IMG/VR virus record: IMGVR_UViG_2832142748_000002
Coordinates: 10,418 to 74,417 of that record
Strand: one strand, 5' to 3'
Length of the DNA: 64,000 nucleotides
From: a virus
Lineage: Duplodnaviria; Caudoviricetes
This document shows positions 5,351 through 58,188 of this stretch, piece after piece. Numbering within the stretch: the stretch's first letter is position 1; each line of letters starts with the position of its first letter. The notes under the pieces are model-generated. The model had not been told where the DNA came from. It was given only the letters and a program-made list of their open reading frames with translations, and did not search any database. A program made the translations under genes and the position numbers.

Positions 5351-5761
5351 GTGGCGACGAAGACGGAGACGAAGAGCAGTGGTGGCCTGCTGGAGCTGGC
5401 AGAGAGGCTGGAGGAGGTCGCGCAGCTGCTGCGTGACACTGTGGCGAAGCTGGGTGGCGTGGTGACGTCCGCGCCCGCGGCGAAGGCGCCCCTGGCGAGC
5501 GCGGCCAAGCCGTCGAAGCCCGGCACGGCGAAGGCGGCGCAGGAGGACGGCACGCGCGTGTGCGCCATCAAGGGCTGCGGCAAGCCCAGCCGGACGAAGG
5601 GCTACTGCGCGGCGCACTACCAGAAGCTGCGCAACCTGGAGAAGACGAAGCGGCGTCCGGCGGACTGGGTGGACGACGCGAAGCCGAACACGGTGGAGGA
5701 CGTCCTCCTGCCGCGCGGCCGCGCCGCCTCGAAGGCGCTGGCGGAGGCGAGCGCCCAATGA
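5351..5761 (+). CDS. VegA-like histone-like protein with C-terminal Cys/His zinc-finger domain
   Basis: Ala/Lys/Pro-rich linker, then CAIKGCGKPSRTKGYCAAHYQKLRNLEKTKRRPADW...LPRGRAASKALA. As I recall the sequence, this closely matches the C-terminus of Myxococcus xanthus VegA. Start GTG 5351 inferred. Confidence 0.75.
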   Translation: MATKTETKSSGGLLELAERLEEVAQLLRDTVAKLGGVVTSAPAAKAPLASAAKPSKPGTAKAAQEDGTRVCAIKGCGKPSRTKGYCAAHYQKLRNLEKTKRRPADWVDDAKPNTVEDVLLPRGRAASKALAEASAQ

Positions 5762-6636
5762 AGCCAGCGGACGTCAGCGGCCTGCCGAAGGAGCTGGAGG
5801 AAGTCCGTCGCATCGCACTGGGCGAAGTGCCCGCCGATGAGGCGCAGGTCCGGGCCGCGCTGGCTCAGGCATGGGCCTGGCTCGCGCCGCTGACGTCCGC
5901 ACTATTGCCGGCTGAACCGTCGCCCGGCGCGGCGAAGCACACGACCGAGGATGTGGAACGGTGGTTCCGGGCAGTGGTCGCGCGGACAAAGGGTTCCACC
6001 GAAACGGTGATGGCCCGGATGCTCCGGGACGCCGCGCTGGAGGGCGCTAAGGTGCCGGGGCTGGTGGCGGACAACGCCGTCCTCCTGAAGCTCGCCCTGG
6101 ATGACGTCCCCGCGTGCGATTGGCAAAGCGGGCGGGGCACGTGTGACGAGACGGGGCGCCAGCCGCGGTGCCAATTCTGCCTGCGCCGGGATGAGCTGAT
6201 GAACAGCCCCGGCGCATCCATGCTCGCAGAGCACGAGACGAAGGTGTCCGCCCTCCAGGCCCAGGTGGCGCATCTCACGGCCGAACTGGACAACCTGAAG
6301 GACTGCGAGCAAGGGGCGAATGCCGTTGCAGTTGAGGCGATGGCTGCGCAGCGCAAGGCCGAGTCCGAGCAGGACGAAGAACGCAAGGCGGTGGAGGCGA
6401 TGACGAAGGCCATCGACAAGCACCTCCCCGGCATCTGCCCGGCGCAGTCCCCGGACGAGGGCATCCACCTGCTGGCCGAGCAGCGCGACGCCGCCCAGGC
6501 CCGCGTGGCGGAGCTGGAGCGCGAGTTGCGCATTCGCAACGATGACCACGCTTTCGAGCAGGACATGCGCATCAAGACCGAGTCCGAGCGCGACGCCCTC
6601 CGCGCAGGTGGAGGCGGTGCGCGACAGGGCGACTGA
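5758..6636 (+). CDS. Coiled-coil phage protein, probably frameshifted near 6601
   Basis: ATGA overlap with the upstream stop. ERDALRA continues naturally as QVEAVRD in the +1 frame. Confidence 0.6.
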   Translation: MKPADVSGLPKELEEVRRIALGEVPADEAQVRAALAQAWAWLAPLTSALLPAEPSPGAAKHTTEDVERWFRAVVARTKGSTETVMARMLRDAALEGAKVPGLVADNAVLLKLALDDVPACDWQSGRGTCDETGRQPRCQFCLRRDELMNSPGASMLAEHETKVSALQAQVAHLTAELDNLKDCEQGANAVAVEAMAAQRKAESEQDEERKAVEAMTKAIDKHLPGICPAQSPDEGIHLLAEQRDAAQARVAELERELRIRNDDHAFEQDMRIKTESERDALRAGGGGARQGD

Positions 6637-6755
6637 GGTGGCGGCGGCGCGGCAGGATCTGGCGGAGTGGGATCAGCAGACCGTGCTCTCATTCGAAGGG
6701 CTCCAGAAGGAAGGGCTCTCTGCATTCACCGAACTCTCGGCGGCGTTGGGGGAGG

Positions 6756-10400: not shown

Positions 10401-10878
10401 CGAGGAGTGCCACAGGATGCGGCTCGAGGATCGGCCGTCTCTGCCGGAGGAGCGCTTCGGTAAGGAGTTGCTGCGCCTGGAGTCCTTCAAGATCGTGGTG
10501 CGCCGGCAGTGGAAGGGGCCTGACGGGCGGGAGCACCGCGAGTGGCGTTTCCGCCATGACAAGCTTCAAGAATTCTTCATCGCCCAGGCACTCCTGGGGC
10601 AGGGCAACCCCCGCATTGCCCAGCACATGGACGATCCGCGCTTCCGGGGCGTCTACTTCCTGTTGGCGCTGCTGATGGATCCGGAGAGCGCGCATCAACT
10701 GCGAGATCGGCTGGTCGTTCACGCCGCCAGGACCCGCGACCACAGCGTGAGCGATGAGTTCGTCACCCTGCTGGAGGCGCGGCGCAAGTCCGAGCAGCTC
10801 CTGCATGCGCCGCCCCCGCGACCGCAGGATGACTCAGATCCCTCAAACAAGCACGGAGGAGGCGAGCGCGTGGCATGA
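7417..10878 (+). CDS. Signal peptide + HEAT repeats + transmembrane helices + NACHT/STAND-like P-loop NTPase
   Basis: MPRQILTLWLCATMTLGDLAQA signal; about 15 repeats of 31 aa (LKDPxxxVRxAAAxALGxMGEAAKEQAPLLV); hydrophobic segments FAWTWVGHLCFWLLLLFVY and ITGFGYVGLLLTWVPIL; Walker A GASGLGKS; Walker B LDIYIDGLNE. The start could also be 7381 or 7405. Confidence 0.85.
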   Translation: MPRQILTLWLCATMTLGDLAQAAQTQQAQDVSPRLRGLLAALDDPSGQVAAGALRLLIKEKRVPDEQIPRLGRMLKDPNPQTRLDTAQALGVLGKAAKQHAPLLTGLLRDPDVSVRQAAAEALGAMGEAAKDQAPLLVDMLKDPDVNVRIAATFALREMGKAAQDQTLRLTGLLKDQHGGVRAAAVQVLVAIGKVPKEEAPHLGDLLKAPKESVRYAATQALGALGEAAKEQAPLLVGMLKDPDSGVREAAVLALGNMGEAAKEQAPLLVGMLKDPNENVSRGAAKALGAMGEAAKEQAPLLVDMLKDPDWSILIPALQALQAMGKAAREQVPRISNLLKDPSPFRRIVAAELLGHMGEAAKEQAPLLVGMLKDPNENVSKGAAKALGALGETAKEQAPYLADMLKDPNEKVRDAAVQALQYMGKAAKDQAPHLVGLLKDPEKDVRKEAAAALGAMGEAAKEQAPYLADMLKDPDEKVRLAAAKALSDMGEFDRKYAPLALELLENETVQYDYEAKGLLMTMAPLELQHVVLLLAKASANPWDRNDWLLCAHVTGGGEPPVERVLRWLPRRAFAGLPTELTLEEARETMHAFAVVWQHSGKYPDLRDDLAEQIVRVASLTKGQWTLTDDKLLVQHQTNLKASYPAHAERLQAIRSSLESWGRVKTFAWTWVGHLCFWLLLLFVYPRSPQVQAVFFWNPWVRTITGFGYVGLLLTWVPILRRRLLAPFANQLLADADLERFPKESYFHGSQVFIPSAGRSVPLLSAVPQLRGQVVLEGASGLGKSLFIRYLLRHSKQLTVFLPAERCREGVLEAIQAKLEGHAKDTAFLQSIIYSGALDIYIDGLNEVTADTRARIVQFVERNFHGNILLATQRMEWTPPITARLYVLQPLSDAQVSEFLASREVLLGEKARLRGPEYLQSCERFVQRVLAPEQPEELRLSMREVLSNPMDLTVIAQMLGEGHSPDLFRLRQQQYELMARDYLEVNLAEFPLNGFAEECHRMRLEDRPSLPEERFGKELLRLESFKIVVRRQWKGPDGREHREWRFRHDKLQEFFIAQALLGQGNPRIAQHMDDPRFRGVYFLLALLMDPESAHQLRDRLVVHAARTRDHSVSDEFVTLLEARRKSEQLLHAPPPRPQDDSDPSNKHGGGERVA
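8187..8583 (+). repeat. Near-identical intragenic HEAT-repeat copies
   Basis: About 100 bp at 8187-8286 recurs at 8484-8583 with one mismatch that I could see; further related copies lie between ~7750 and 8880. Confidence 0.85.
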
Positions 10879-28948: not shown

Positions 28949-29673
28949 CGGGAGACGTGCCTCACGACGCGCTGGGTGATGCGCTCCCAGAAGCCGGAGT
29001 ACGTCTCCCGGCCGGACAGGCGCCCCATGACGTGGTGCAGGAGGACATCCCCGCCCAGGTAGACGCCCGCGTGGTTGGGCACCGGGGCGCGCAGCTGCAT
29101 AAGGAGGACGTCATGCTCGCGCAGGGCCTGGCCCGTCACATCCACGAAGCCCGCCCGGCCGAAGCCCTCCTGGTAGAGGTTGCCACCCTTCGCCCACCAG
29201 TCGTCCGGGCGCTCGAAGTCGGGCAGTGCCAGGCCCAGGCGCTCCCGGTAGTAGTCCTGGATGAGGGAGTAGCAGTCCAGGACGCCGTGGCTGAAGGTGC
29301 GGCCCACCAGCGGCGGCCGGTAGCCGTCCGGGTACCAGAGGCACCAGTGCCCCACCGGCACGTTGAGGATAAGCCAGGGCAGGCCCCAGCGCTCCATCAT
29401 CACCCGGTCCGCCTCGCTCGGCTCCGGCGCGGCGTTGGGGTGGGAGTGCACCACTGCCACCACCTCGCCATCCCCTTCCGCCCGCGCATAGTCCTCGGGC
29501 GACAGGACGAAGTGCGCCTGGCCGTCGGCGAGGTTCCGGCAGGGCCGGTACCGCTGGGCGCCTCCAACCAGCACCACGAGGCCGCAGGACTCGCGGGGAT
29601 AGTCCGCCTGGGCGTGTGCGAACGCGGCGCCCAGGACGTCATCAGCCAGCGTCAGCCGGCAGGGGTCGACCAT
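28942..29673 (-). CDS. Lambda gpK-like tail assembly protein (JAB + NlpC/P60)
   Basis: ESCG and HSHPNAAPEPSEAD JAMM motif; DCYSL and HAGVY NlpC motifs. Confidence 0.95.
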   Translation of the reverse strand: MVDPCRLTLADDVLGAAFAHAQADYPRESCGLVVLVGGAQRYRPCRNLADGQAHFVLSPEDYARAEGDGEVVAVVHSHPNAAPEPSEADRVMMERWGLPWLILNVPVGHWCLWYPDGYRPPLVGRTFSHGVLDCYSLIQDYYRERLGLALPDFERPDDWWAKGGNLYQEGFGRAGFVDVTGQALREHDVLLMQLRAPVPNHAGVYLGGDVLLHHVMGRLSGRETYSGFWERITQRVVRHVSRC

Positions 29674-46031: not shown

Positions 46032-46964
46032 TCAGGCGAGGGGCGCGACGCGCACGCCCTTCACCACCGCGAGGGCGTAGTCGTTGTAGTTGGCCATGCC
46101 GCAGTACCAGACGATGCGGTCGATGCTCTCGTCCTTGGCCTGCGCCTCGCCCACCGTCTTGATGTGGATGCCCGCGCTGTCGCCCGGCGCCGTCAGCCCG
46201 GCGATGCCCACCTTCCGGCTGCCGTCGTCGAAGCAGCCCGCGGCGATGGTGGTGCAGTCGGTGGCCGTCCCCTGCGTCTGGTTGGTGGGGATGGAGTCAT
46301 TCACGAAGATGGGAATGCCCCGGTACACCGGCACCGTCTTCCCACTGGGCAGGGTGAGGACGTCGTTGATGCTCGCGCCCCCCAGCTTGCGCAGGTAGGC
46401 GTAGTGCCGGTTGAGGAGCACCTCCGCCATGGTGATGAAGTCCACCTCGCCGTCCTTCGCCTTCACCTTCGAGATGAGGTCGTCGAGGATGCCCACGTCG
46501 TAGAGGGCGCCGTTGGTGCCGGCCACCAGCGTCTGGCCCGCCGCTACCTGGGTGAGGAGGCCGGGGAACTCGTCGTTGAGCCCCGTGCCGTTGATGAACA
46601 TGTTGCGGAAGCGGCGCCCCGCGGCCTTCGCCTTGCTGGCCACCTGGTACGTCCGCTGGTCGTTGACGTTGCTGCGCGTGGCCTGGATGAGTCCGTCCAC
46701 CTCCGCGTCGCCGATGATGCGCGTCAGCGTCGCGGTGGACTGCTCCACCGTGGCCGGATTCTTCGCGGTGATGGTGCCGCCGACGCCGAGCACCTGCACG
46801 TCACCCAGCACCGACTCCTTGTTCCACGTGTGCGAGTTGCCCTCCAACTCGTCGAAGGGCAGCCGCTCGTAGAGGCGGTCGGTGGTGATGATGGTTTCGA
46901 CGACACCGGCAACCAGGTCGTCTTTGCACAGCTTGGCGGACTCAGCGAGGGTGATGGAAGGCAT
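46032..46964 (-). CDS. Major capsid protein
   Basis: MPSITLAESAKL..DDLVAGVVETI...LPFDELEGNS; FINGTGLNDEFPGL; position after the scaffold. Confidence 0.9.
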   Translation of the reverse strand: MPSITLAESAKLCKDDLVAGVVETIITTDRLYERLPFDELEGNSHTWNKESVLGDVQVLGVGGTITAKNPATVEQSTATLTRIIGDAEVDGLIQATRSNVNDQRTYQVASKAKAAGRRFRNMFINGTGLNDEFPGLLTQVAAGQTLVAGTNGALYDVGILDDLISKVKAKDGEVDFITMAEVLLNRHYAYLRKLGGASINDVLTLPSGKTVPVYRGIPIFVNDSIPTNQTQGTATDCTTIAAGCFDDGSRKVGIAGLTAPGDSAGIHIKTVGEAQAKDESIDRIVWYCGMANYNDYALAVVKGVRVAPLA

Positions 46965-47137
46965 GCGGGTGGACTCCTCCTCGGGGAGAGGGAGGTGAAA
47001 CAGGGCGGGAAGACGCGCCAAGGGCGAAGGGGTGTCAGGGCCCCGGGGCGTATGAAAGGGATTGGACGAGAGGGGCACTGCCGGGCATCCCGCCCGGTTC
47101 GCCTCGGTGACGCATCCCGCGTCCTCGGGGCCTACTC

Positions 47138-47887
47138 CTATTTGCGATTGGCCAAGCCCGCCGAGATGCGCTGCGTCGGGTTCAGCTTGTCGCTACCGCT
47201 GGGCATCGCGCCCGTCCTCGGCCCCGGTTGCGTCCCGCTTCCGGAGGCACTCGTGCTGTCGAAGGCACGAGCGAAGTTGGCGTCCTTCTTGAGCTCCGTG
47301 ACGAACTCTCGAATCGTCAGGAAGCCGCCCTTGCCGTTGCCGCGAGGATCGCCCTCCGCGTCAACAACCCGAGCCAAGAATGAACCACCTTCCTCAATCA
47401 CTTTCACATGCTTCTGGACGTGGGGCAAGAGCAACACCGCACTTCCTTTCAGCTCCGCGAGGGCTGCCGTGGCCTCCGCGTCCACGAGGTGCTTGTGGAG
47501 CGAGGCGCGCATGCGCTCCACGACGGTGTCGCGCTCGCCGAGCGCCTTCGCGTGGCCGGCCTCGAGGTCCGCCTTCAGCTTCTCGAAGTTGGCAGCGCCG
47601 TCCTTCCCTTCCTGGGCCTTCGCCAGCGCCGCCTTCAGCTCGCCGAGGGACTTCTCCACGTCCTCCGGCGTCTTGCCGAGCTTCAGCCACGCCGCCTGGG
47701 CCGTCGTCAGCGCCTTGCTGCTCTTGCGCTCCTTGTCCAGGGCGGTGGTGAGCCCACTGTGGTCCATGCGCTTGAAGACGTCCGCGTCGAGGGCGAACTT
47801 GCCGCCCTCCCCCTTCGCGTACAGCCCGCGGAACTTCTCCGGGACGATGTCCAGCGCGTCCAGCTCCTGCTGCCACTCGAATTCCAC
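47138..47887 (-). CDS. Capsid scaffolding protein
   Basis: Coiled coil, LLLPHV, FDSTSASGSG, LNPTQRISAGL end; directly before the capsid gene. Confidence 0.82.
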   Translation of the reverse strand: MEFEWQQELDALDIVPEKFRGLYAKGEGGKFALDADVFKRMDHSGLTTALDKERKSSKALTTAQAAWLKLGKTPEDVEKSLGELKAALAKAQEGKDGAANFEKLKADLEAGHAKALGERDTVVERMRASLHKHLVDAEATAALAELKGSAVLLLPHVQKHVKVIEEGGSFLARVVDAEGDPRGNGKGGFLTIREFVTELKKDANFARAFDSTSASGSGTQPGPRTGAMPSGSDKLNPTQRISAGLANRK

Positions 47888-47917
47888 GTGTCTGCCTTTC
47901 TCGGCCCAACGGGCCGG

Positions 47918-49117
47918 CTACAGCTGTGCCTTCTTGAAAGCGGCGGCCTCGGTGGCGCGCAGCGCGTCCAGGGTGAGCGTCTTGCCGCTGGCGTCGGTGA
48001 AGCTGCCGAGGCGGAGGCCTCCGTCCCGGAAGAGGCGCCCGCGCGCGGGCCCCAACACCTCGTCCTGGAAGCTGGTGGGCTGACGGCGCAGCCAGTCCTC
48101 GTAGGACAGGCCCTTCGGCGCGGAGCCGATGTTCTCCTTGGCCCAGCGCTCGCGGACGCGCTTCACCGCAGCGCCGCGCTCCTTCTCCGTCATGTCCTTC
48201 CATGCCTCGCCGGCCTTCGCCTTTGCCTCGGCCCGGAAGTCGATTTCCCGGTTCCGCCTGTCGCGCGTGTCCCGGACGGTGGGCCTGTCGCCCACGAGGC
48301 GCACGCCGTCGATGACGGGGATGGTGGTGCTGCGGCAGCGCCAGTGCGCCGGCGGTCGCGGGCCCCCGCGCACCGGGAAGGTGTGGCCGTCACGGGAGGC
48401 GCACAGCAGCGTGGTGCGGCCGTCCAGCGTGGACACCCAGCGCACCTCTCGCACCAGGTCCTCGTTGGCCCGGTACACCTCCTCGCGGGCCTGGGTGGCC
48501 ACGTGGTTGAGGGCGGTGCGCGCCACGGCTTCCGCGCCGCGGCGGCTGCCCTCCAGTGCCCCATCCCCGCTGACGAGGTCCCGGACAATCTGCTGCGTCG
48601 TCCGGCCCTCCACCACCCCGGCCTGAATGGTGCGCTCGATGCGCGCCAGGTCCGCCGGCTCCATGCCGCCCACCCACGTCTCGAAGAGGGCGCCGTTGAA
48701 GGGCCTGGAGAAGACGGCCGCCTCCAGCACCTCCGCCGTGGGCGCGGCGATGGAGACGTCCACGATGAGCGTCTCCTCCAGCAGGGCCGCCTGCCACCGC
48801 GCCTCGTACGCCGCGAAGGAGGCCGCCTCCTCCTGCAGCGTGCTGGAGATGGCCGCGTAGGCTCCGGCCCGGAGGGTGCGCACCTCGGACAGCAGGCCCG
48901 CGATGCGCTCCGTCGTCTCGCGGCCGGTGTCGTACCCGCCCGTGTCCTCGACGGCCTGGAGGCGCGAGGCGAGCTGCTCCGTCAGGCGCTCCTCCGTGTC
49001 ATTGAGGAGGCCCACGACGCGCCGGGCGACGCCCGCCTTGTAGCGCTCCAGCTGGACGGCGTGCGCGACGGAGCGCTCCAGCAGCTCCTCGTTGGCGGTG
49101 GGGAGGCCGGTGCTCAC
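47918..49117 (-). CDS. Head morphogenesis protein (SPP1 gp7 / Mu gpF family)
   Basis: AEAVARTALNH, WVSTLDGRTTLLCASRDG, PPAHWRCRST. Confidence 0.92.
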   Translation of the reverse strand: MSTGLPTANEELLERSVAHAVQLERYKAGVARRVVGLLNDTEERLTEQLASRLQAVEDTGGYDTGRETTERIAGLLSEVRTLRAGAYAAISSTLQEEAASFAAYEARWQAALLEETLIVDVSIAAPTAEVLEAAVFSRPFNGALFETWVGGMEPADLARIERTIQAGVVEGRTTQQIVRDLVSGDGALEGSRRGAEAVARTALNHVATQAREEVYRANEDLVREVRWVSTLDGRTTLLCASRDGHTFPVRGGPRPPAHWRCRSTTIPVIDGVRLVGDRPTVRDTRDRRNREIDFRAEAKAKAGEAWKDMTEKERGAAVKRVRERWAKENIGSAPKGLSYEDWLRRQPTSFQDEVLGPARGRLFRDGGLRLGSFTDASGKTLTLDALRATEAAAFKKAQL

Positions 49118-49332
49118 CGCGTCCCCCGCTTCACCTGGACGGGTGCGTTGGAGCGCTGCTCGCGGAGATGCCGCGCCTGATGCAGCTCACGCAGACGGCG
49201 GCGTACCTTCCGCGCACCGCGGCGGTTGGAGCGGAACCAGTGGGCGGCCCGCGCGAAGTCTTCCGTGAGGCACGGCAGTTGCTCCCCAAGGAGTCCCGCC
49301 GCGCACAGCGTCTCGTCATGGAGCAGCTTCAC
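49114..49332 (-). CDS. Hypothetical protein (72 aa)
   Basis: Overlaps both the portal stop and the next start. Confidence 0.45.
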   Translation of the reverse strand: MKLLHDETLCAAGLLGEQLPCLTEDFARAAHWFRSNRRGARKVRRRLRELHQARHLREQRSNAPVQVKRGTR

Positions 49333-50810
49333 AGGGCACCTCCGGCGAGCTGCCCAGGCCCCTGCGCGGACGGCACCTGGCCGCCAGCCGCCGGCGCCGT
49401 GCGGAGGCTGCCCAGGGCGGGCCCCTCGCTCGCGAGGCGCTCCCCATCCGCCTCCACGTCGAAGTCGGCCATGAGGACGCCGCGGCGCTTGAGCTCCGCC
49501 AGGAAGGCCTCGCGGGAAATCTCCCGGGCCGCGCGCGCCTTGAAGAGGACGTCCAGGCCCTGCGCGTCAGACTCGGAGATGCCGAAGTCGGTGTGCACCT
49601 CCACCTTCAGCTTCGCGTCTTCCACGTCCAGGGCCAGCCACCGGGCCGCGAAGTAAAAAGCCAGCTCCAGCGCGTCGCTGAAGGACTCCGCCATGGCCTG
49701 CAGCTCGGAGTGCGACTGCGCGGTGTTGATCGACTTCTCGGTGGCCGTGGGGGTGCCGGAGCGCCGGACGAGGAGTTCCACGCCCAGCATGGCCATCTCG
49801 TCCTTCAAGTCCTCCAGGTCCTGCCGGCCGGCCTCGATGGCCTTCCCCGAGTGCTCGACGTAGTAGAACTTCCCCTGCGGACTGCTGGTGGTGAGGAGCG
49901 CGTGGGGCCCCACCGTCACCTTCCCCGAGCCTCGTGACTCCCCTTCCCCGCGGTCCTGCTCCAGCCCAGAGGCCGCCAGGATGGGGAAGCGCGCCACGTT
50001 GAGGATGTTCCGCTGGTCGCTGGCGGACTGCCAGTGCTCCACGTTCTTGTCCGCCAGGTCCATCAGCGGCGGCTTCGCGGCGCACAGGGCCGTGCGCTCC
50101 CCGGCGTACCAGGTGACGAGGGGGATGAAGCCCAGCGTGTTGGGGCCGCTCGCAGCCTCCTTCCACTCGCTGGTGCCGCTGCGCTCGTAGACGGTCCAGG
50201 TGTCGCGCTCGAGGACGCGCACCCGCTCCACCTTCACCTCGTCGAAGCCGTCCCGGCGCGTCTCGCTCTCGCGGATGCGCACGTGGGTGAGCACCTCCAC
50301 CCCGCCCACCGTCTCCGCGTACGCGGCGATGAGGGACTCGGCGGAGACGTGCACGAAGTAAGGGCGGAGGCCGGCGCGCTGCTCGTCCTCCAGCGTCTTC
50401 ACCGTCTCCGAGTCCACCACCGGGAAGTCCACGAGGATGTGGGCGAGGCCCTTGGCCAGGCCGTCCCGGAAGACGCCGCGGGCCCAGGCGGTGACGTCGC
50501 TGCCCTGCCTGTCCACGTCATCCACCAGGACGCGCAGCGGCTCCGGCGCGGAGTCGCCCAGGCGCACCGGCTTGGCGAAGGGCTTCGCGGCGAGGTTGCG
50601 CACCGTCTTGCCGAAGACGTTGAGGAGGACGGCGCGCGCGAGGCGCTCCTTGTACGCCGCGTCCTCCTCCGCGTGGTACTGCGGCAGGTAGGTGCGGCCG
50701 GCGGCGCGCATGGTGCCGGTGCCGCCCAGGAGGGCCAGGACGAGGGCCCATGCGGGCTGCATGGCCCGGTAGGCGCCGCTGGGGGTGCTGACGTCGGAGG
50801 CGCCGCTCAT
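49329..50810 (-). CDS. Portal protein (DUF4055-type)
   Basis: YLPQY..E...Y.ERL.RA, GLAHILVDFP, FIPLV, PPLMDLA..N.EHWQS.SD. Confidence 0.93.
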   Translation of the reverse strand: MSGASDVSTPSGAYRAMQPAWALVLALLGGTGTMRAAGRTYLPQYHAEEDAAYKERLARAVLLNVFGKTVRNLAAKPFAKPVRLGDSAPEPLRVLVDDVDRQGSDVTAWARGVFRDGLAKGLAHILVDFPVVDSETVKTLEDEQRAGLRPYFVHVSAESLIAAYAETVGGVEVLTHVRIRESETRRDGFDEVKVERVRVLERDTWTVYERSGTSEWKEAASGPNTLGFIPLVTWYAGERTALCAAKPPLMDLADKNVEHWQSASDQRNILNVARFPILAASGLEQDRGEGESRGSGKVTVGPHALLTTSSPQGKFYYVEHSGKAIEAGRQDLEDLKDEMAMLGVELLVRRSGTPTATEKSINTAQSHSELQAMAESFSDALELAFYFAARWLALDVEDAKLKVEVHTDFGISESDAQGLDVLFKARAAREISREAFLAELKRRGVLMADFDVEADGERLASEGPALGSLRTAPAAGGQVPSAQGPGQLAGGAL

Positions 50811-51343
50811 CCGGGCACCACGAGGAAGGGGCCTCGCACGCCGTTGTTGAAGCGCTCCGCCGCGCGAAGGGCCGTACGCACGCGCTCCACCGGCTTCGCG
50901 CCCTTGGTGGCGAAAAGGGCTCCGCGCGCGACGTCCGCACCGCAGCCGACAGCCGCGAAGGAGTCCCGCGACTCGCCCACCTGGTAGTCGTCTTCGACCG
51001 TGAAGAGGCGGCCGCAGACGCCCACCAGGAAGTGGCCACCGCGCTCCTGTCCGTTCTCCTGGTGCGCGAAACCCGCGTCCTTCAGCGTCGCGCGCAAGGC
51101 ATCAACGAAGTCCACCACCATGAAGCGCTCCAGGGCGCTTGTCCGGCGAGGTGGCGGCGGCGGCCGGAAGGCGTGGCGCAGCACCTGTCCCATCCGGAAG
51201 GAGGTGGTGAAACCGAGGACGTAGGGCCCGTTGCGGAACACCTTCGCGTCCTTCCGCACCACCAACTGCCAGCTGTTGGAGCCAGCGCTGTCCCCGCCGA
51301 CGTACACGCGTCCCTGGTGAACCACTCCGGCAATGCACGTCAC
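50807..51343 (-). CDS. Proteasome-beta/HslV-like Ntn peptidase
   Basis: After Met removal: Thr1, Asp17 and Lys33 at exactly the proteasome-beta positions (TCIAG..GGDS..KDAKVF); AVGCG in place of the GSG loop. Confidence 0.88.
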   Translation of the reverse strand: MTCIAGVVHQGRVYVGGDSAGSNSWQLVVRKDAKVFRNGPYVLGFTTSFRMGQVLRHAFRPPPPPRRTSALERFMVVDFVDALRATLKDAGFAHQENGQERGGHFLVGVCGRLFTVEDDYQVGESRDSFAAVGCGADVARGALFATKGAKPVERVRTALRAAERFNNGVRGPFLVVPG

Positions 51344-51834
51344 AGCACCACCTCCATGCGGCGGATCGCCGCCTCGCCGCACACCGCGGTGAAGACGCTC
51401 GCCACCACGTGGCCCTGCATCGCGGACGGGCCGGACAGCAGCAGGTGCAGCACCTCCGGCCGCTCGGCGTTGAGGGTCTCGCGAACGGAGGCCTCGTCGG
51501 TGCGCGACAACCTGGCGGGCCCACCCGGGTGGGTGTGCCAGTCGCCCAGGTAGCGCAGGCACGGAGACACCCGGCCCAGGAGGCGGTTGTCGCGGACGCG
51601 GTCCGCCGCGAAGCCCACGCGGCCGCGCACGGCACGCCGGCCTGGGCCGGTGATGGCGAGCACGTGGGCCTCGCCGTCCACCACGGCGCCCAGCAGCAGG
51701 CCGCCCGTCTCCAGCGGGGCGCGTACCCGCGCCAGGCGCAGGGCCTTCGCCAAGACGCCGGGCGCCAGGCGCACGCGGTAGCCGTCGGAGACGTAAAGGG
51801 CCGGCGCCGACGCCGACGGCAGCGGGCAGGCCAT
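51340..51834 (-). CDS. Free-standing JAB/JAMM metallo-isopeptidase
   Basis: ETGGLLLG and WHTHPGGPARLSRTD, an exact E...HxH-x7-S-x2-D motif; ATG overlaps the terL TGA. Confidence 0.9.
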   Translation of the reverse strand: MACPLPSASAPALYVSDGYRVRLAPGVLAKALRLARVRAPLETGGLLLGAVVDGEAHVLAITGPGRRAVRGRVGFAADRVRDNRLLGRVSPCLRYLGDWHTHPGGPARLSRTDEASVRETLNAERPEVLHLLLSGPSAMQGHVVASVFTAVCGEAAIRRMEVVL

Positions 51835-53390
51835 CACCGGTAGCTCCTCACCTGGAAGGTGGCGGTCCCCTCGCCGAGCATCAGCTCCGTGAGGGCCCAC
51901 ACCTCCGCGTCCATGCGGTTGGGGCTCCAGGTGGACTCCCCGGGCACCCACGTCGTCTGCTCGTCCTCCAGCGCGGGCAGGCGCCCCACGTGGTGGGCCA
52001 TGCCGCGCTCGAAGAGGGCCGCCACCGGCTCCGCGCGCTTCGCCTTGCCACGCGAGGCCGTCACCACCTTTACGGTGACGTGCTTCTTCATCTCGCGGGC
52101 CTTGGCGCGGAGGTTCGTCTCCACCATGTCGCCGCCGAAGTTCTTCTCGCCCACAACAGCGTCCGCGCTCTCTTTCTCGTAGACGGCCAGGGACTTCGCG
52201 GCCCATCCCTCCGCGGAGTACTTCGCGGAGTCGTCGCGCCAAACGTAGGCGTGGCCGTTGCTGGCCTTGCCCGCGCAGACGATGCCCACCTCGTCGTTGG
52301 CGGGCCCGTCGCCGCCGGCAGGGTCGACCGCCACCACCACGCGCACCATGGGCAGGGGGTTGCCCTCGGCGTCCTTCGGCAGCGAGGAGACGCGGGTGTT
52401 GTCCAGCACCTCCTGCGTCCACAGCGCGCCCACCGCTGCGGCCTTGAAGGCCTCCTCCACCGTCGCCGGGTACTCGCGGCGGAAGTCGTGGATGCCCTTC
52501 TCGTAGACGGAAATCTTCGCCCGGCGCCAGGCGAGCTGCGCGTCGTCCAGCTCGAAGCCGTGCGCCTCGCGGCAGAGGGCGGCGTACCGCTCCTCCTCGC
52601 TGGTGCGCTCGAAGCCGGGCGGCACCTCGCGCCGGTACTCCTCCTGCCAGAACCAGGGGACGAAGATGAGCTCGAAGTCGTTCTCCCCCTTCTGCGCCGC
52701 CATGCACAGGTGGTGGAAGAGGCCCTGGGGCCCGTCGCTGGTGCTCTCCAGGATGACTTCGGTGCCCGGCGCCGTCGGCACGCCCTCCATGACGCCGCGC
52801 ATGTGCGTCGCGGCGTTGGGCCAGAAGGCCACCTCGCTGCCGTGGAAGTACTGGATGGTGGAGGAGCGGCCCGTCCCTTTCGCGCCCGCAGTGCCCACCT
52901 TGTAGCCGGAGGACAGCTTGTCGAAGAGGAGCTCCTTCGCGTTGGAGGCGCTCGTCGAAGGCTTCACCAGGGCCGGAACGTGGTCGTGGTACCTCTTCGC
53001 CATGTCGAAGAGGTTCACCGTCGCCGCGTCCTCGTGCGTGAGGATGTAGGCGCGCACGCCCTTCAGGTGGCTCACCTTCCAGTAGAAGCGGGCCTCGACG
53101 TACGTGCTGCAGCCCTGCTGGCGCCCCTTCAGGACGATGGCGCGCACGAAGCCCCGGCGCTTCAGCTGGGCCTCCAGCCGCTCGTGGATGTACAGCTGCG
53201 CGCGGTTCAGCTTCAGCGCCGGCAGCTCCCCGCCCGTCACCTCCTTCGGGCGGATGCGCAGGCACCGCGAGGCGTAGTGCGGGAAGTCGTCCTTCAGCCG
53301 CTGGCGGATGGCCTTCTCTCGCGCAGAGAGGGGCGCTGGGGCCGCGCCCTGGCGGGACTCGGCCGCGCGGCGGCGGGCGGGGGCGCTCAT
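51834..53390 (-). CDS. terL: Terminase large subunit
   Basis: IVLKGRQQGCST (Walker A), FHGSEVAFW, ESTSDG, VVAVDPAG, SPNRMDA.VWAL. Confidence 0.95.
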   Translation of the reverse strand: MSAPARRRAAESRQGAAPAPLSAREKAIRQRLKDDFPHYASRCLRIRPKEVTGGELPALKLNRAQLYIHERLEAQLKRRGFVRAIVLKGRQQGCSTYVEARFYWKVSHLKGVRAYILTHEDAATVNLFDMAKRYHDHVPALVKPSTSASNAKELLFDKLSSGYKVGTAGAKGTGRSSTIQYFHGSEVAFWPNAATHMRGVMEGVPTAPGTEVILESTSDGPQGLFHHLCMAAQKGENDFELIFVPWFWQEEYRREVPPGFERTSEEERYAALCREAHGFELDDAQLAWRRAKISVYEKGIHDFRREYPATVEEAFKAAAVGALWTQEVLDNTRVSSLPKDAEGNPLPMVRVVVAVDPAGGDGPANDEVGIVCAGKASNGHAYVWRDDSAKYSAEGWAAKSLAVYEKESADAVVGEKNFGGDMVETNLRAKAREMKKHVTVKVVTASRGKAKRAEPVAALFERGMAHHVGRLPALEDEQTTWVPGESTWSPNRMDAEVWALTELMLGEGTATFQVRSYR

Positions 53391-53986
53391 TCCAGCGCCC
53401 CCAGCGCGTCCTCGTGGCTGAACTGGACGGTGGTCTCCACCTTGTCGACGAAGAGGCGCAGGTGCTTGCCCAGCAGCTCCAAGGACTTCGTCTTGTCCCA
53501 GAGCTTCACCTTGGCCACGGTGCCGATGGCCTCGCCGTCCACGGTGAGCTGCTCCACCTCGATGGAGGAGATGGCTCGGCGCAGGTGGGCCGGCATCTCC
53601 TTCAGCGGCAGCAGCGCCCCGGTGGGACTGAAGGCGTCGCCGATGTCCGTCCGGGCGATGAGGAGCAGCTCGCGCAGGACGTCGTCCGCCTTCACCTCAA
53701 CGCGCTCGGCCCGGGCGGCCTTGGCGGCAGCCACGGCTTCCTGGACCTTGGGATTTCTTAGCAACTTCGAGGCCGTCACCTCGGCGGACCGCTCGGAGTA
53801 GCCGGCGCGCATGGCGGCCTGCTTCCCGTTGAGGTCGACCAGGTACTCCTGGACGAAGCGCTCCTGGTTCGGCGTCAGCGCATGGGCGCGCGACTCACCC
53901 GCCGGCGTCTTCCGGCCAGAGCGCGTGCTGGGCTTGCGAGGAGGCGTGCTTCCCACACCGCCGAGTCTCGGGTGTCGCGTGGACAA
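53387..53986 (-). CDS. terS: Terminase small subunit
   Basis: LTPNQERFVQEYLVDLNGKQAAMRAGYS...LL.NP.V; KVKLWDKTKSLELLGKHL. Exact start uncertain. Confidence 0.92.
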   Translation of the reverse strand: MSTRHPRLGGVGSTPPRKPSTRSGRKTPAGESRAHALTPNQERFVQEYLVDLNGKQAAMRAGYSERSAEVTASKLLRNPKVQEAVAAAKAARAERVEVKADDVLRELLLIARTDIGDAFSPTGALLPLKEMPAHLRRAISSIEVEQLTVDGEAIGTVAKVKLWDKTKSLELLGKHLRLFVDKVETTVQFSHEDALGALE

Positions 53987-54062
53987 CGTCCGGCCCGGGC
54001 GCGGGAGGCCGCCCCTTCTTCATGGGTACAGGGGACTTTCCCCGGCTCACCACGGAGGAGTC

Positions 54063-54275
54063 GTGCGCCTGCTCTACTGCCCTGCCTGCCGCACCCACCG
54101 ACCCGCGGACATGCGCCACTGGTGCTCTGGCCTGGAGGAGCTGCGCCAGCGCGCCGAGCGGCTCAGGACCTGCCCGCACACCTACGCGTCCCGTGTGCCG
54201 GGGACGCAGGACTGGTACTGCTCGGACTGCGACTACCTCGGCCCGCGCCCGAAGGGGACCCGAGAGCGCAGCTGA
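54063..54275 (+). CDS. Small zinc-finger protein
   Basis: GGAGGAG RBS; CPAC, CPH, CSDC motifs. Confidence 0.6.
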   Translation: MRLLYCPACRTHRPADMRHWCSGLEELRQRAERLRTCPHTYASRVPGTQDWYCSDCDYLGPRPKGTRERS

Positions 54276-54280
54276 CACCT

Positions 54281-54544
54281 TCAGCCCTGGCGCTCGGGCT
54301 CGTCGCCCCACAGCGCGAGCTGCCCTTCCGGCTCCGTCCGCTTCCGCGTGGCCCGGGGGGCGGGCTCTACCGGGGCTGCCGGGAGCGGCTCTCTCTGTGC
54401 GTAGGCCTGGGCCGCCTTCCGGAGCCGGTCCTGGGCGCGAGAGAACTCCTCCTCGTCCCCGTCGTCCGCCTCCGCGTAGGCCAGCGCCGCAGCCGTCAGC
54501 CTGTCCCAGGGCGTGGCATATGGCTCGCGCAGCGGCTCCGACAT
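54281..54544 (-). CDS. Hypothetical protein
   Basis: MSEPLREPYATPWDRLTAAALAYAEAD...; coding-like composition. Confidence 0.55.
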   Translation of the reverse strand: MSEPLREPYATPWDRLTAAALAYAEADDGDEEEFSRAQDRLRKAAQAYAQREPLPAAPVEPAPRATRKRTEPEGQLALWGDEPERQG

Positions 54545-54897
54545 GGACCGCCCGCGGCGCTGCCGCATGAGGTGCCCGTGACAGCGCCGGTGCCTGGGCG
54601 CCCGGGGCCGGGTGCAGTCGCCTTCGGAGCACTGGTCTGGAGAGCGGCAAGAGGCCATGGACGCCACTACTGTGCCGCACACCCGAGCAGCGCGCACGAG
54701 ATGCGCGCTGCCCAGCGACGTTCAGGTCCGTGGCCAGGTTCTGCATGGCGCCCGCCCAGGCGGCGCAGGAGGAAGAAGCGCAGGAGGGGTAAGGACTACC
54801 CATGTCTGCGGTTATCGGCGCCCCACCTGCGCTGCCATGCTTCCTCGCGTCGTCCGCCTCCCTTCGGCATGGAGTAGACTTGCGTAATGGCCACTAC

Positions 54898-55260
54898 GAG
54901 GGGCTGTCCCTGATTAGCGCAGCCAAAGAAACATGGATGCGACGTGCAGGACGGCGAGGTAGCTGGTCGCCATCTTGTCATAGCGGGTGGCGACAGCACG
55001 AAAGCGCTTGAGGTCATGGAAGAAGCACTCCACCCGATAGCGCAGCCGGTACAGGGTGCGGTCTAACGGCAACGCCCGCTTGCGGCTCGGGTTCGAATGG
55101 ATGACAGGCTTCATCCTGAGCTTTCGAACGTTGGCGCGAATGCGGTCGGCGTCATAGCCGGTATCCGCGATCAAAGCGGCGCCCTCTGCGTGCACCAGAA
55201 GTTCTTCGGCCATTGTGTACTCGTGCTGCTGGCCGCGCGTCAGCGCGACGTGTTGAGGCA
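54898..55260 (-). pseudogene. IS5-family transposase, C-terminal fragment
   Basis: LIADTGYDAD, Y.LRYRVECFFHDLKRFRAVATRYDK (YREK-like motif); N-terminal half missing. Confidence 0.88.
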
Positions 55261-55282
55261 ATTCTGAGATCACCTCTACACC

Positions 55283-56416
55283 TTGAACCAAGCCCCATGG
55301 GCGCGGGGACTGAATATGGTAGTGTGGCGCCGCCATCCTACTCACCGCGAGGCAATTTTGCATTTCACGCCAGCACCTCAAAAGTGGCCGCTCAAAGCCG
55401 CCTTCCTTTTCATCCTCTGCATGCCGGCCATTGCAGTGGCCGCCGGCGCACCCTCTATTGATGGAAAACTGGGAGGAGTGGAATGGACCGACTCGTCGGT
55501 CCAGAAAGCACAGCTTCCATACGGCACTATCAAAGCCTTGTACTCCAATGCCACTCTGTACATCGCCGTAGACATGGTCTTGGATGAGCATGACGATGGC
55601 CTGTTCAATGGCCGCTATCCTCCCAAAGGGGATGGCTTGGACGTCATTTTCGATTCGTCATCCGCAGGCAAGGGAAATATCGATATCCAAGACATTGCCT
55701 TTACCCGCAAAGGAGACATTGGGGCTCCGCATCGATATACGTGTCAAACTTGTCGGACCAAGGACCAGAAAACGCTCGAAACAAAATCCCAGATCGCGAT
55801 GGGTTTTGGAGCATCTCCTGATTCCGCCAATCCACATCTCATCTGGGAGTTGTCGATTCCAATAAGCGAGATTAACGCACGTGAGGGGGAAGCCGTTCGT
55901 CTCTGGTTGAAATTCTGGTCCGAATCTCCTCATATCGATGGTGAATACTTTCCTGAACTGTCGGACGGTGAATCCTCCCCTAGGAAGTTGGAATTCAAGC
56001 TTGAATCGGCTCAAGTGCAGGCCACCGCGCCAGCAATAGCGTCAACTACCCTGGCAGCATCGCAAGGCCGGACGATGGTCGTGCTTGATGATGGAACCAT
56101 TGAAGTCAAGTCTTCTGATGGGATGCGCAGCGTCCTGACCAAGGATGGGCGCTTTCGCCTGCGCCCAGGAGATCAACTGCCCTCCAGTACTCCTGTTGAA
56201 GCCCCGGCGGCCATCCTACCCGTATTTGCTAACGACTCCCCTATGGCTACTTGGCTTGAGTCACACAACACAGGGTTGCTCAAGACGATCAAGCGGCTGC
56301 TCAACGATGATCCCGCGCTCATTTCAAACTACCTCAAGAGCGAGCGCAACATGAGTGTCTTCAATAAAATCGATCGCAGGGCCGACGTAATCAACTTCCT
56401 CAGCACAACTCCATGA
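55283..56416 (+). CDS. Secreted protein with DOMON/CBM9-like N-terminal domain (start uncertain)
   Basis: Signal ...AAFLFILCMPAIAVAAG; PSIDGKL..VEW, LYIAVD, WELSIPISEI; AT-richer DNA. Confidence 0.6.
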   Translation: MNQAPWARGLNMVVWRRHPTHREAILHFTPAPQKWPLKAAFLFILCMPAIAVAAGAPSIDGKLGGVEWTDSSVQKAQLPYGTIKALYSNATLYIAVDMVLDEHDDGLFNGRYPPKGDGLDVIFDSSSAGKGNIDIQDIAFTRKGDIGAPHRYTCQTCRTKDQKTLETKSQIAMGFGASPDSANPHLIWELSIPISEINAREGEAVRLWLKFWSESPHIDGEYFPELSDGESSPRKLEFKLESAQVQATAPAIASTTLAASQGRTMVVLDDGTIEVKSSDGMRSVLTKDGRFRLRPGDQLPSSTPVEAPAAILPVFANDSPMATWLESHNTGLLKTIKRLLNDDPALISNYLKSERNMSVFNKIDRRADVINFLSTTP

Positions 56417-57078
56417 GTCACATCAACTCTAGACCATTTTTCTTGATGCTCCTGGTTTGTCTTGCTGATTCAGCGGCGGCTGGCGGTACAAGCACCTCCG
56501 GAAAATCGCCAGAGGCGCCAGGAGTCGGCGAGCGGCTCGACCAGTTCCTGAAGAATGCAGAGCGACAGCCTGAAGAGGTGGCAGAACAACTATTTGTCCC
56601 ACCACTCCCTGACGCAGCAACAACTGACGAGGGGACCAAAGCCGAATACCAGAAGGCGCTGCGGTCCTATTACGAATATCGCCAATCGGGATATCAACAT
56701 CGAAAGGCAGTGTTTGCCTGGCAGCTTCTCTCCTCGAAAATAATCTTTGCTGTCGTTGTCTTATTGGTGTTGATTGGTGTTTATTTTTCGTGGATTCAGC
56801 TGACTGGACGAACCTACAGACACCCTTCCGCATCGAAACTCCAGAAACTGGGCACCCAACAGGGCAAGCCCGCAAACAACACTCAATCAGTCGAAACTCC
56901 CACAGCAGAAGATAGCGCGCTCAAAGCACCTCCTGATTCGGGCGCAATGAAATTCAAGGCTGCGCTCGATGGAATAGAAGTCTCCTCTCCTGTTCTTGGG
57001 GTAGTTATCCTTGTGATATCCATCGTCTTCTTCTATCTCTATCTAGTGGTTGTATACCCTATTCATGACGCATTCTGA
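56413..57078 (+). CDS. Membrane protein (signal plus two TM helices)
   Basis: ATGA overlap; TMs IIFAVVVLLVLIGVYFSW and VLGVVILVISIVFFYLYLVVVY. Confidence 0.8.
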   Translation: MSHINSRPFFLMLLVCLADSAAAGGTSTSGKSPEAPGVGERLDQFLKNAERQPEEVAEQLFVPPLPDAATTDEGTKAEYQKALRSYYEYRQSGYQHRKAVFAWQLLSSKIIFAVVVLLVLIGVYFSWIQLTGRTYRHPSASKLQKLGTQQGKPANNTQSVETPTAEDSALKAPPDSGAMKFKAALDGIEVSSPVLGVVILVISIVFFYLYLVVVYPIHDAF

Positions 57079-57169
57079 TGCACTGAGTGCGAGTTGCAAA
57101 TCCTGCCGAAAATAGGCATGGACCTGCCCCGGGTGCGTTCGCTCTTGGGCGTGTGCACCATCAGGAGGA

Positions 57170-57360
57170 TGACGTGTGGAAGCGGGTGGCTCCGCTGCTA
57201 CTACGCCACAGGCGCGAGACGCGACGTGGGTGGCTCAGGTGAGATGACCATGCGGTGCTACGCGGCATTGTCTTCGTGTTCAAGACGGGTATCGCCTGGG
57301 AGGACCTGCCGGCGGAGGTGTTCCGCGTCCGCGGCATCACCTGTTACTCGCGCCGGAGCT
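57170..57360 (+). pseudogene. IS5-family transposase, N-terminal fragment with in-frame stop
   Basis: WKRVAPLL...*DDHAVLRGIVFVFKTGIAWEDLPAE. Confidence 0.75.
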
Positions 57361-57542
57361 GCGCAGGCGGCAGCCCCTCCGGCCGGTCCGGACCGAGGCC
57401 TCGCGGATCCGCAGCCTCGTCCTCAGGCAGTGGTGGTTTGCGGCAGCGGGCTATGCCCTTCCACCGTGCCTCAATCTGGGCCCGTCCGCACGGGAGCCGC
57501 TTGGTGGGCACTTCGCCCTCGGACCTCCGTCGCTGGGGAAGT

Positions 57543-57948
57543 ATGGGGATTCCCATGCTTCCCCTCGACCGTCGGCAATACCGACGGTCGCCCCGTTCCT
57601 CGGAAGTGAGAAACGGGGTGTAGCTCAGAAACGAGAAGCGCCGACGAGGCTCAGAAGTGAGCAACGGCCGGGAGGAGGTCACAACGGTTGTGACCCCCTC
57701 CTGGATTTCCCGGAGGCCCCCACCCAGGACAAGGGTCACATCGGATGTGACCCCCACCACTCCGGGAATCTCCGGAGTGGCGTCGCGCGCGGTGGGGGTC
57801 TGTTCCGTTCAGCCCCCCACTCTATGAATCCGCAGAGTGCGTGCCTGGGCGGAGCAGGAGCCGAGGCGAGGGGTCTTCCCGGTCCAGCCCCCCGTTCTGC
57901 GAATTCGCAGAACGGGCCCCCTTAAAACTACCCAGGTCCTGGGTAGTT
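57543..57948. repeat. Dense array of different palindromes and short direct repeats
   Basis: Hairpins at 57566-57590, 57677-57695, 57733-57753, 57757-57780, 57891-57916 (perfect 26 bp) and 57926-57948; CTCRGAARYGAG three times at 57599, 57624, 57650. Confidence 0.85.
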
Positions 57949-57969
57949 AATCTGGCCCGGCGCGGGACG

Positions 57970-58188
57970 TCACAGCCCTAGTTCCGCGCGCCACCCGGGG
58001 ATGAACATGTCCGGCTCCGTGGCCCCAAAACCGCCGCGCTCGGCAAGCCGCTCCAGGGACTGCGCAGTGCCGTAGCGCCGCGAGCACTCGGCGTAGGCGC
58101 GCTCAGCCAGGGCCTACGGGATGGTTCGAGGGATGCCCGCGTCAATGTCCTTCTGGATCACCAGCAATGGGAAGCGGCGCTCATTCAT
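57970..58188 (-). pseudogene. Small phage gene interrupted by one TAG
   Basis: MNERRFPLLVIQKDIDAGIPRTIP*ALAERAYAECSRRYGTAQSLERLAERGGFG...; TAG at 58114-58116, frame intact on both sides. Confidence 0.6.

Follow-up and report, generated by a model that had tools for sequence, protein, structure and literature searches.

A Cap3-like JAB isopeptidase and a separable proteasome-like peptidase between the terminase and portal genes of a Myxococcaceae prophage

We analysed a window of 64,000 nucleotides from a Caudoviricetes genome (IMG/VR record IMGVR_UViG_2832142748_000002, positions 10,418 to 74,417), a high-GC (guanine plus cytosine) Myxococcaceae prophage in which two small genes separate the gene for the terminase large subunit (terL) from the portal gene at the beginning of the late operon. 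The first encodes a solo JAB/JAMM zinc isopeptidase of the Cap3 clade (51340..51834, minus strand, 164 amino acids) and the second, an optional cassette, a proteasome-like N-terminal-threonine peptidase similar to the AAH and BPH proteins (50807..51343, minus strand, 178 amino acids). The explanation that we favour is that these are two separate accessory genes in a variable terL-portal slot, that neither protein needs the other, and that the JAB gene would have been captured from a Cap3 of type II CBASS (antiphage signalling that is based on cyclic oligonucleotides). Judged from sequence comparison, we give this explanation as a whole a probability of about one half.

Two accessory genes between terL and portal

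We gathered 24 viral-contig loci with a relative of the JAB and 80 with a relative of the peptidase, and scored every open frame at these loci with profiles of both proteins and of the window's head proteins. All 13 distinct JAB genes of the myxophage type, including that of the window and two genomic loci, lie between terL and the portal gene, and the peptidase gene is present at seven of these loci and absent from six. In L008 and L009, whose JABs are 92-93% identical to that of the window, the JAB stop codon overlaps the portal start codon (ATGA) and the sequences part from that of the window only in the final three codons of the JAB; the peptidase thus differs as a clean unit the size of a cassette. 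At four further loci the slot between JAB and portal holds, instead of the peptidase, an unrelated Arg-rich open reading frame (ORF) of about 70 amino acids (L013:3785-4000; L015 and L016, about 5487-5700; L121, about 6455-6670), the start of which overlaps the JAB stop (GTGA). This ORF is a third state of the terL-portal cargo slot.

The same independence appears at larger scale. No JAB gene was found within 5 kb of the peptidase at the 75 other viral loci (65 clusters at 90% identity), and no peptidase at the 78 other genomic JAB loci, which come from a scan in which each species was represented by one genome and which returned 80 loci with JAB relatives, two of them myxophage prophages. Among deposited phage genomes, homologues of the peptidase were found in 204 and homologues of the JAB in none. 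The 150 species genomes sampled from the host family include seven with the peptidase and no phage-type JAB, one with the JAB and no peptidase, and none with both. A JAB gene hidden upstream of the peptidase in L004 and L005 was considered and rejected, since the gene there has no similarity to JAB. The phylogenetic tree of the peptidase is so poorly resolved that it decides neither for co-inheritance with the JAB nor for exchange. The initial annotation of this DNA had read the two genes as a deconjugase/protease pair or operon, and had named their independent occurrence as evidence against such a pair. This is what the survey found: because both genes occur independently of each other, a coupled pair is not supported, and neither is the idea of an undescribed two-gene system.

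SPP1-like head modules that are more distantly related to this one, with portal proteins 37-40% identical, carry neither the JAB nor the peptidase, and in L206-L211 terL adjoins the portal gene. The expectation that terL and portal are normally adjacent thus holds in these distant relatives of the head module but not as a general rule.

The order in the window is terS-terL-JAB-peptidase-portal, all on the minus strand. At the terL/JAB junction (TGATG) the JAB ATG (51834-51832) overlaps the terL TGA (51836-51834), at the JAB/peptidase junction (GTGA) the GTG start of the peptidase overlaps the JAB TGA, and at the peptidase/portal junction (ATGA) the portal ATG, at 50810, shares bases with the peptidase TGA. 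GGAG-type Shine-Dalgarno motifs, read from the sequence, lie 5' of both the JAB and the peptidase starts, and from terL to portal the coding strand showed no terminator-like site. These three overlaps, and the position of both genes inside the late packaging and head operon, had been described correctly by the initial annotation, as had both protein identities, the JAMM motif of the JAB and the Thr1/Asp17/Lys33 triad of the N-terminal nucleophile (Ntn) peptidase. No ATPase, AAA+ or ubiquitin-like gene adjoins the two genes.

The JAB protein and its relation to Cap3

Profile searches, alignment and phylogeny show the first protein to be, by homology, a JAB/JAMM metallo-isopeptidase with intact catalytic residues, of the Cap3 branch of prokaryotic JABs. 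It matches Pfam Prok-JAB (PF14464) above the cut-off (E=1.5e-11; 44.6 bits, with the cut-off at 25), and the JAMM residues E42, H100, H102, S110 and D113 (E...HxH-x7-S-xx-D) are invariant in an alignment of 30 homologues. The AlphaFold2 model (mean predicted local distance difference test score, pLDDT, 89) has the MPN fold. A Foldseek search with this model gave Rpn11 homologues as top matches (template modelling scores, TM, up to 0.76-0.83) and also matched the Cap3 structure 9ild. By profile comparison with PDB the best match is 9ild itself, a Cap3:CD-NTase complex (E=1.1e-17), seven orders of magnitude better than Rpn11. The PADLOC models for the CBASS JAB match with E=5e-17, and the best NCBIfam matches are Cap3-type models (TIGR02256/VC0181, the Cap2-Cap3 fusion model and NF050170), each matched under its curated cut-off.

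The genomic relatives point the same way. Of the 78 non-myxophage loci, 71 have the JAB relative directly downstream of a Cap2 E1-E2 gene, usually overlapping it, and are genuine Cap3 genes for that reason; PADLOC confirmed the Cap2 and cyclase assignments on seed sequences. In the maximum-likelihood tree the myxophage JABs group in a single clade (support of 97 in the SH-like approximate likelihood ratio test, SH-aLRT) with Cap3 sequences on either side, so placed that they are likely nested within Cap3; the tree is unrooted, has no outgroup, and many of its deep branches are weakly supported.

The phage gene stands alone. We found no Cap2, cyclase or effector gene on its contig, all SMODS and ThiF matches of the genome being on other contigs, and a JAB that belongs to a prophage-borne CBASS was rejected because the contig has neither Cap2 nor cyclase. 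An origin in a Bil-type operon (bacterial ISG15-like conjugation) finds no match either: no E1 or E2 gene was found on the contig and no Bil-type profile matched, in a library without a dedicated Bil profile. The initial annotation had linked the gene to Bil or to the gpI/Hint chemistry of the tail. Neither link held, as the best profiles are the Cap3 and Cap2-fusion models and the tail has a JAB of its own; an association with gpI/Hint was rejected since nothing joins the two modules. This second Prok-JAB match of the window (29362-29640, minus strand, 68.6 bits) lies in a 255-amino-acid frame of the tail module and is presumably a tail JAB like gpK of lambda, unrelated to the JAB of the head module.

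On at least four further viral contigs, unrelated and with a GC of 40-63%, solo Cap3-like JABs were also detected within head or neck modules, without Cap2 nearby. The arrangements differ: terL-like gene, JAB, small ORF and portal-like gene (L020:2998-7362); JAB, terL and portal (L024:2680-6770); a portal-like gene (phrog_332), JAB and a protease gene of phrog_458 (L022:789-6220, representing L022/L023); JAB followed by a Mu-like_Pro gene and a capsid E gene (L021:4375-8013); and phrog_578 followed by JAB (L017:3479-5378). In the last of these, a radical-SAM protein with an HMPTM zinc ribbon is encoded two genes downstream of the JAB (L017:6753-7799). Because the solo viral JABs occupy at least three separate places among the Cap3s in the unrooted tree, repeated capture of Cap3 by phages is suggested.

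The host encodes a system on which such an enzyme could act. Its assembly (10.8 Mb) contains a complete type II CBASS on contig C344 (L119:4808-9196 of genome G000, minus strand) in the order phospholipase effector, CD-NTase, Cap2 and Cap3. The cyclase ends in SSSSA and, with this terminal Ala, fits the conjugated type, as a C-terminal Gly or Ala is reported to mark cyclases that undergo conjugation (PMC10097602). A second cluster, on contig C485, combines an E1-type gene with two SMODS cyclases; no JAB was detected in it. On contig C175 (8545-10769) about 1.2 kb separates a ThiF-type E1 gene from a JAB gene, and the two may represent another ubiquitin-like conjugation or sulfur-carrier operon. 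Full-length Cap2-like genes were found in about 11 of the 150 sampled family genomes, and in three or four of the 11 genomes that belong to the same genus.

We propose tentatively that the JAB is a captured Cap3 that would serve as a counter-defence deconjugase, a role that, judged from the genes, we regard as possible but short of an even chance, with part of the probability left to explanations other than those considered here. The phage lineage would have taken Cap3 from a type II CBASS without Cap2 or the cyclase. The JAB would be made late in infection together with the head proteins, would cut the isopeptide bonds that the host Cap2 makes between the cGAS-like cyclase and its targets, and would in this way blunt CBASS signalling. 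The gene is kept in all examined relatives of the phage lineage and is translationally coupled to head genes. Cap3 was reported to antagonise CBASS signalling (bioRxiv 10.1101/2022.03.31.486616), this being one of two papers that portray it as an antagonist of cyclase priming, and CBASS was reported to fire late in infection (PMC12991175); both reports fit a counter-defence role. The anti-CBASS function suggested by the initial annotation is thus a reasonable hypothesis for a JAB of the Cap3 branch in a host with type II CBASS, but not for a deconjugase/protease pair. Slightly more speculative is the wider proposal that several unrelated phage lineages independently captured Cap3 and express it without Cap2 from their head modules, as a viral "de-cGASylase" that would remove the conjugation by which cyclases are primed.

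Several observations weigh against the counter-defence role. The JAB scores far under the curated NCBIfam cut-offs for Cap3 (30.5 against 200 bits and 48.2 against 127.6 bits), and the tree, which has no outgroup, falls short of formal proof that it nests within Cap3. Its identity with the Cap3 of the host is just 35%, over 68 residues, and recognition of the host cyclase tail by the phage JAB is for this reason unproven. The only other sampled genome with a phage-type JAB (G124) gave no Cap2 match with the query employed. In the model put forward by Krueger et al. (bioRxiv 10.1101/2023.09.29.560134), the cyclase is inactive in a conjugate with PspA until Cap3 frees it, and a phage Cap3 would on that view aid the host. 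Finally, the JAB gene is never missing from the lineage, and the protein's rate of divergence is close to that of the portal protein (62% versus 68-69% identity), a pattern that suits a morphogenetic role equally well.

Such a role, with a head, portal or neck protein as the substrate that the JAB would process or strip of a tag in the course of assembly, is the strongest of the alternatives, although we think it unlikely. A comparable role in processing belongs to gpK in the tails of lambda. Besides its constancy and its rate of divergence, the JAB of the myxophages is ATGA-coupled to the portal gene where the peptidase is absent, the other solo JABs recur in head and neck modules of at least four phage types, and the head module of the window lacks a recognisable prohead protease. 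Against this, the distant SPP1-like relatives of the head module assemble without any JAB, and we identified no substrate candidate with a ubiquitin-like or cleavable C-terminal tag among the head genes. Moreover, the nearest relatives of the protein are the Cap3s of immune systems rather than phage structural proteins, and a morphogenetic enzyme would have to be reconciled with the lack of a homologue in any deposited phage genome. For this last point, the JABs of the window, L020 and L022 were compared by tblastn with 50,697 deposited phage genomes and gave zero matches, so that no cultured phage can be used as a model.

The proposal that a phage carries a captured Cap3 matters beyond this locus, and of the two genes the JAB is the more interesting. 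The anti-CBASS proteins found in the literature, such as Vs.4, act on the nucleotide signal by degrading or sequestering it, and our literature search for a phage-encoded Cap3, JAB or isopeptidase acting against CBASS or Bil returned nothing relevant. As far as the literature searched shows, solo Cap3-like JABs predicted in phage head modules are undescribed. If the JAB reverses cyclase conjugation, it would represent a new principle of counter-defence, a new anti-CBASS class that hits the sensor instead of the nucleotide signal, and a phage counterpart to the deubiquitinases and deISGylases of eukaryotic viruses. It would also bear on the disputed effect of Cap3 on CBASS signalling (dampening or release); should a phage profit from Cap3 activity, this would favour the model in which conjugation primes and Cap3 antagonises. 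The gene is therefore a concrete and testable candidate for a new anti-CBASS principle.

The peptidase and the head module

The peptidase has zero Pfam or NCBIfam matches and was identified by PHROGs (phrog_1040, "peptidase HslV family", E=6e-21) and by structure. The protein starts with Met-Thr, and the residues Thr2, Asp18 and Lys34, which become Thr1, Asp17 and Lys33 after removal of Met, are invariant in 27 homologues from several phyla that are about 60% identical to it. Its AlphaFold2 model (pLDDT 90) superposes best on BPH (5ovs, TM 0.78), followed by HslV and the 20S beta subunits. The alpha-beta-beta-alpha Ntn fold is supported, with HslV and 20S beta subunits at E<=1e-7, and BPH is the best PDB match by sequence as well as by structure. 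HslV proper (ClpQ) is a poor fit, given the missing Pfam and NCBIfam matches and the absence of an adjoining AAA+ gene of the HslU type. Compact proteasome homologues linked to phages were described by Fuchs, Alva and Lupas (PMC8665760), namely PPH of about 140 amino acids and AAH, the latter abundant in Actinobacteria and also found in phages. The window protein fits the AAH/BPH-like type, an assignment made by its length (about 180 amino acids) and its actinobacterial and phage distribution, not by clustering with an AAH reference. The family, which the initial annotation had taken for undescribed, has thus been catalogued since 2021, and the present gene is one more example. We picture a ring-forming threonine peptidase that would degrade some protein or peptide late in infection.

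We surveyed the neighbourhood of the peptidase at 65 non-redundant viral loci (clusters at 90% identity). A terminase, portal, MuF or prohead-protease gene lies on the same strand within 5 kb in at least 31 of them and directly adjacent in 17. The order terL-peptidase-portal is repeated in L049, L061, L063 and L075 with unrelated terminase and portal families, and we also found terS-peptidase-terL, portal-peptidase and peptidase-prohead protease (examples among L035-L109 are L049:1221-6243, L075:2900-7682 and L066:3724-9587). Elsewhere the neighbours are capsid and terminase genes and also replication, methylase, HNH and resolvase genes, and in large cultured phages the peptidase gene stands among early or nucleotide-metabolism genes. 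The head-module position of the peptidase is recurrent, not universal. Its recurrence beside terminase and portal genes is a useful record for the future characterisation of the family.

This recurrence, and in particular the four loci with the order terL-peptidase-portal, is what would be expected of an auxiliary protease that matures the head or clears the scaffold, and the phage has a scaffold protein and no known prohead protease. We nevertheless consider that function improbable. L049, L063, L066 and L079 also encode a canonical HK97-type prohead protease, close myxophage relatives manage without the peptidase, and neither the early and nucleotide-metabolism context in the large cultured phages nor the replication, methylase and HNH neighbours at the remaining loci agree with it. 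The peptidase as the sole prohead protease of the phage was rejected, because sister phages lack it.

The remaining genes of the operon, all on the minus strand, were assigned as follows. The terminase small subunit gene terS (53387..53986) matches Pfam Terminase_2 (E=7.7e-41) and phrog_51, and terL (51834..53390) matches Terminase_6C (E=2.6e-10) and phrog_979, phrog_38 and phrog_2. The portal gene (49329..50810) matches DUF4055 (E=1.3e-40) and phrog_145 (E=6e-134). The rest of the head module (46032..49117) was assigned by PHROGs (phrog_241, phrog_206 and phrog_212 jointly) and comprises a MuF-like head morphogenesis protein (47918-49117), the scaffold (47138-47887) and the major capsid protein (46032-47078). 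The PHROGs search showed no canonical prohead protease in the head module, and neither the JAB nor the peptidase matches the canonical prohead proteases (HK97 S78/U35 or the ClpP-like S49) in Pfam or PHROGs. Directly upstream of terS the GC content falls to 0.59-0.63 (54000-58000), and an ORF of 225 amino acids in this region (54914-55591, minus strand) has a C-terminus that, judged by eye, resembles a DDE transposase.

Least probable of all is a miniature Rpn11-plus-proteasome, in which the JAB and the peptidase would act as a coupled deconjugase and protease that strips and degrades ubiquitin-like tags set on virion proteins by host systems of the Bil or CBASS type. In its favour, the genes adjoin and are translationally coupled, both are retained together in two sub-clades of the myxophages at identities as low as about 65-70%, and the structural search ranks Rpn11 homologues first for the JAB. 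Against it, the JAB is always kept where the peptidase is missing from six of 13 related phages, the two are apart at all 75 and 78 other loci and in the 150 family genomes, no Bil-type profile matched, and L012 and L004 take different positions in the peptidase tree, a weakly supported hint that the peptidase was exchanged independently of the JAB.

Comparison with known systems

The JAB Rpn11 works with the proteasome in eukaryotes and archaea, and Rpn11 with the 20S proteasome likewise joins a JAB deubiquitinase to a peptidase of the proteasome beta type. It differs from the arrangement described here in that the phage genes are apart almost everywhere and have no ATPase or ubiquitin-like gene alongside. 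Lambda gpK, which acts with the ubiquitin-like protein gpI, is likewise a phage JAB in a structural module, whereas the present JAB, of the Cap3 type, is part of the head module.

For the peptidase, the closest known proteins are the group-I proteasome homologues AAH and BPH (PMC8665760; 5ovs and 5ovu for BPH), which share the compact subunit of about 180 amino acids, the Thr1/Asp17/Lys33 residues and the distribution in phages and Actinobacteria. The window peptidase differs from them as a cassette within a head module. For the JAB, the closest system is Cap3 of type II CBASS, with which it shares the fold and the JAMM motif and which is its best profile match in PDB, PADLOC and NCBIfam; it differs from Cap3 in CBASS in falling under the curated cut-offs and in standing alone, between terL and the portal or peptidase gene.

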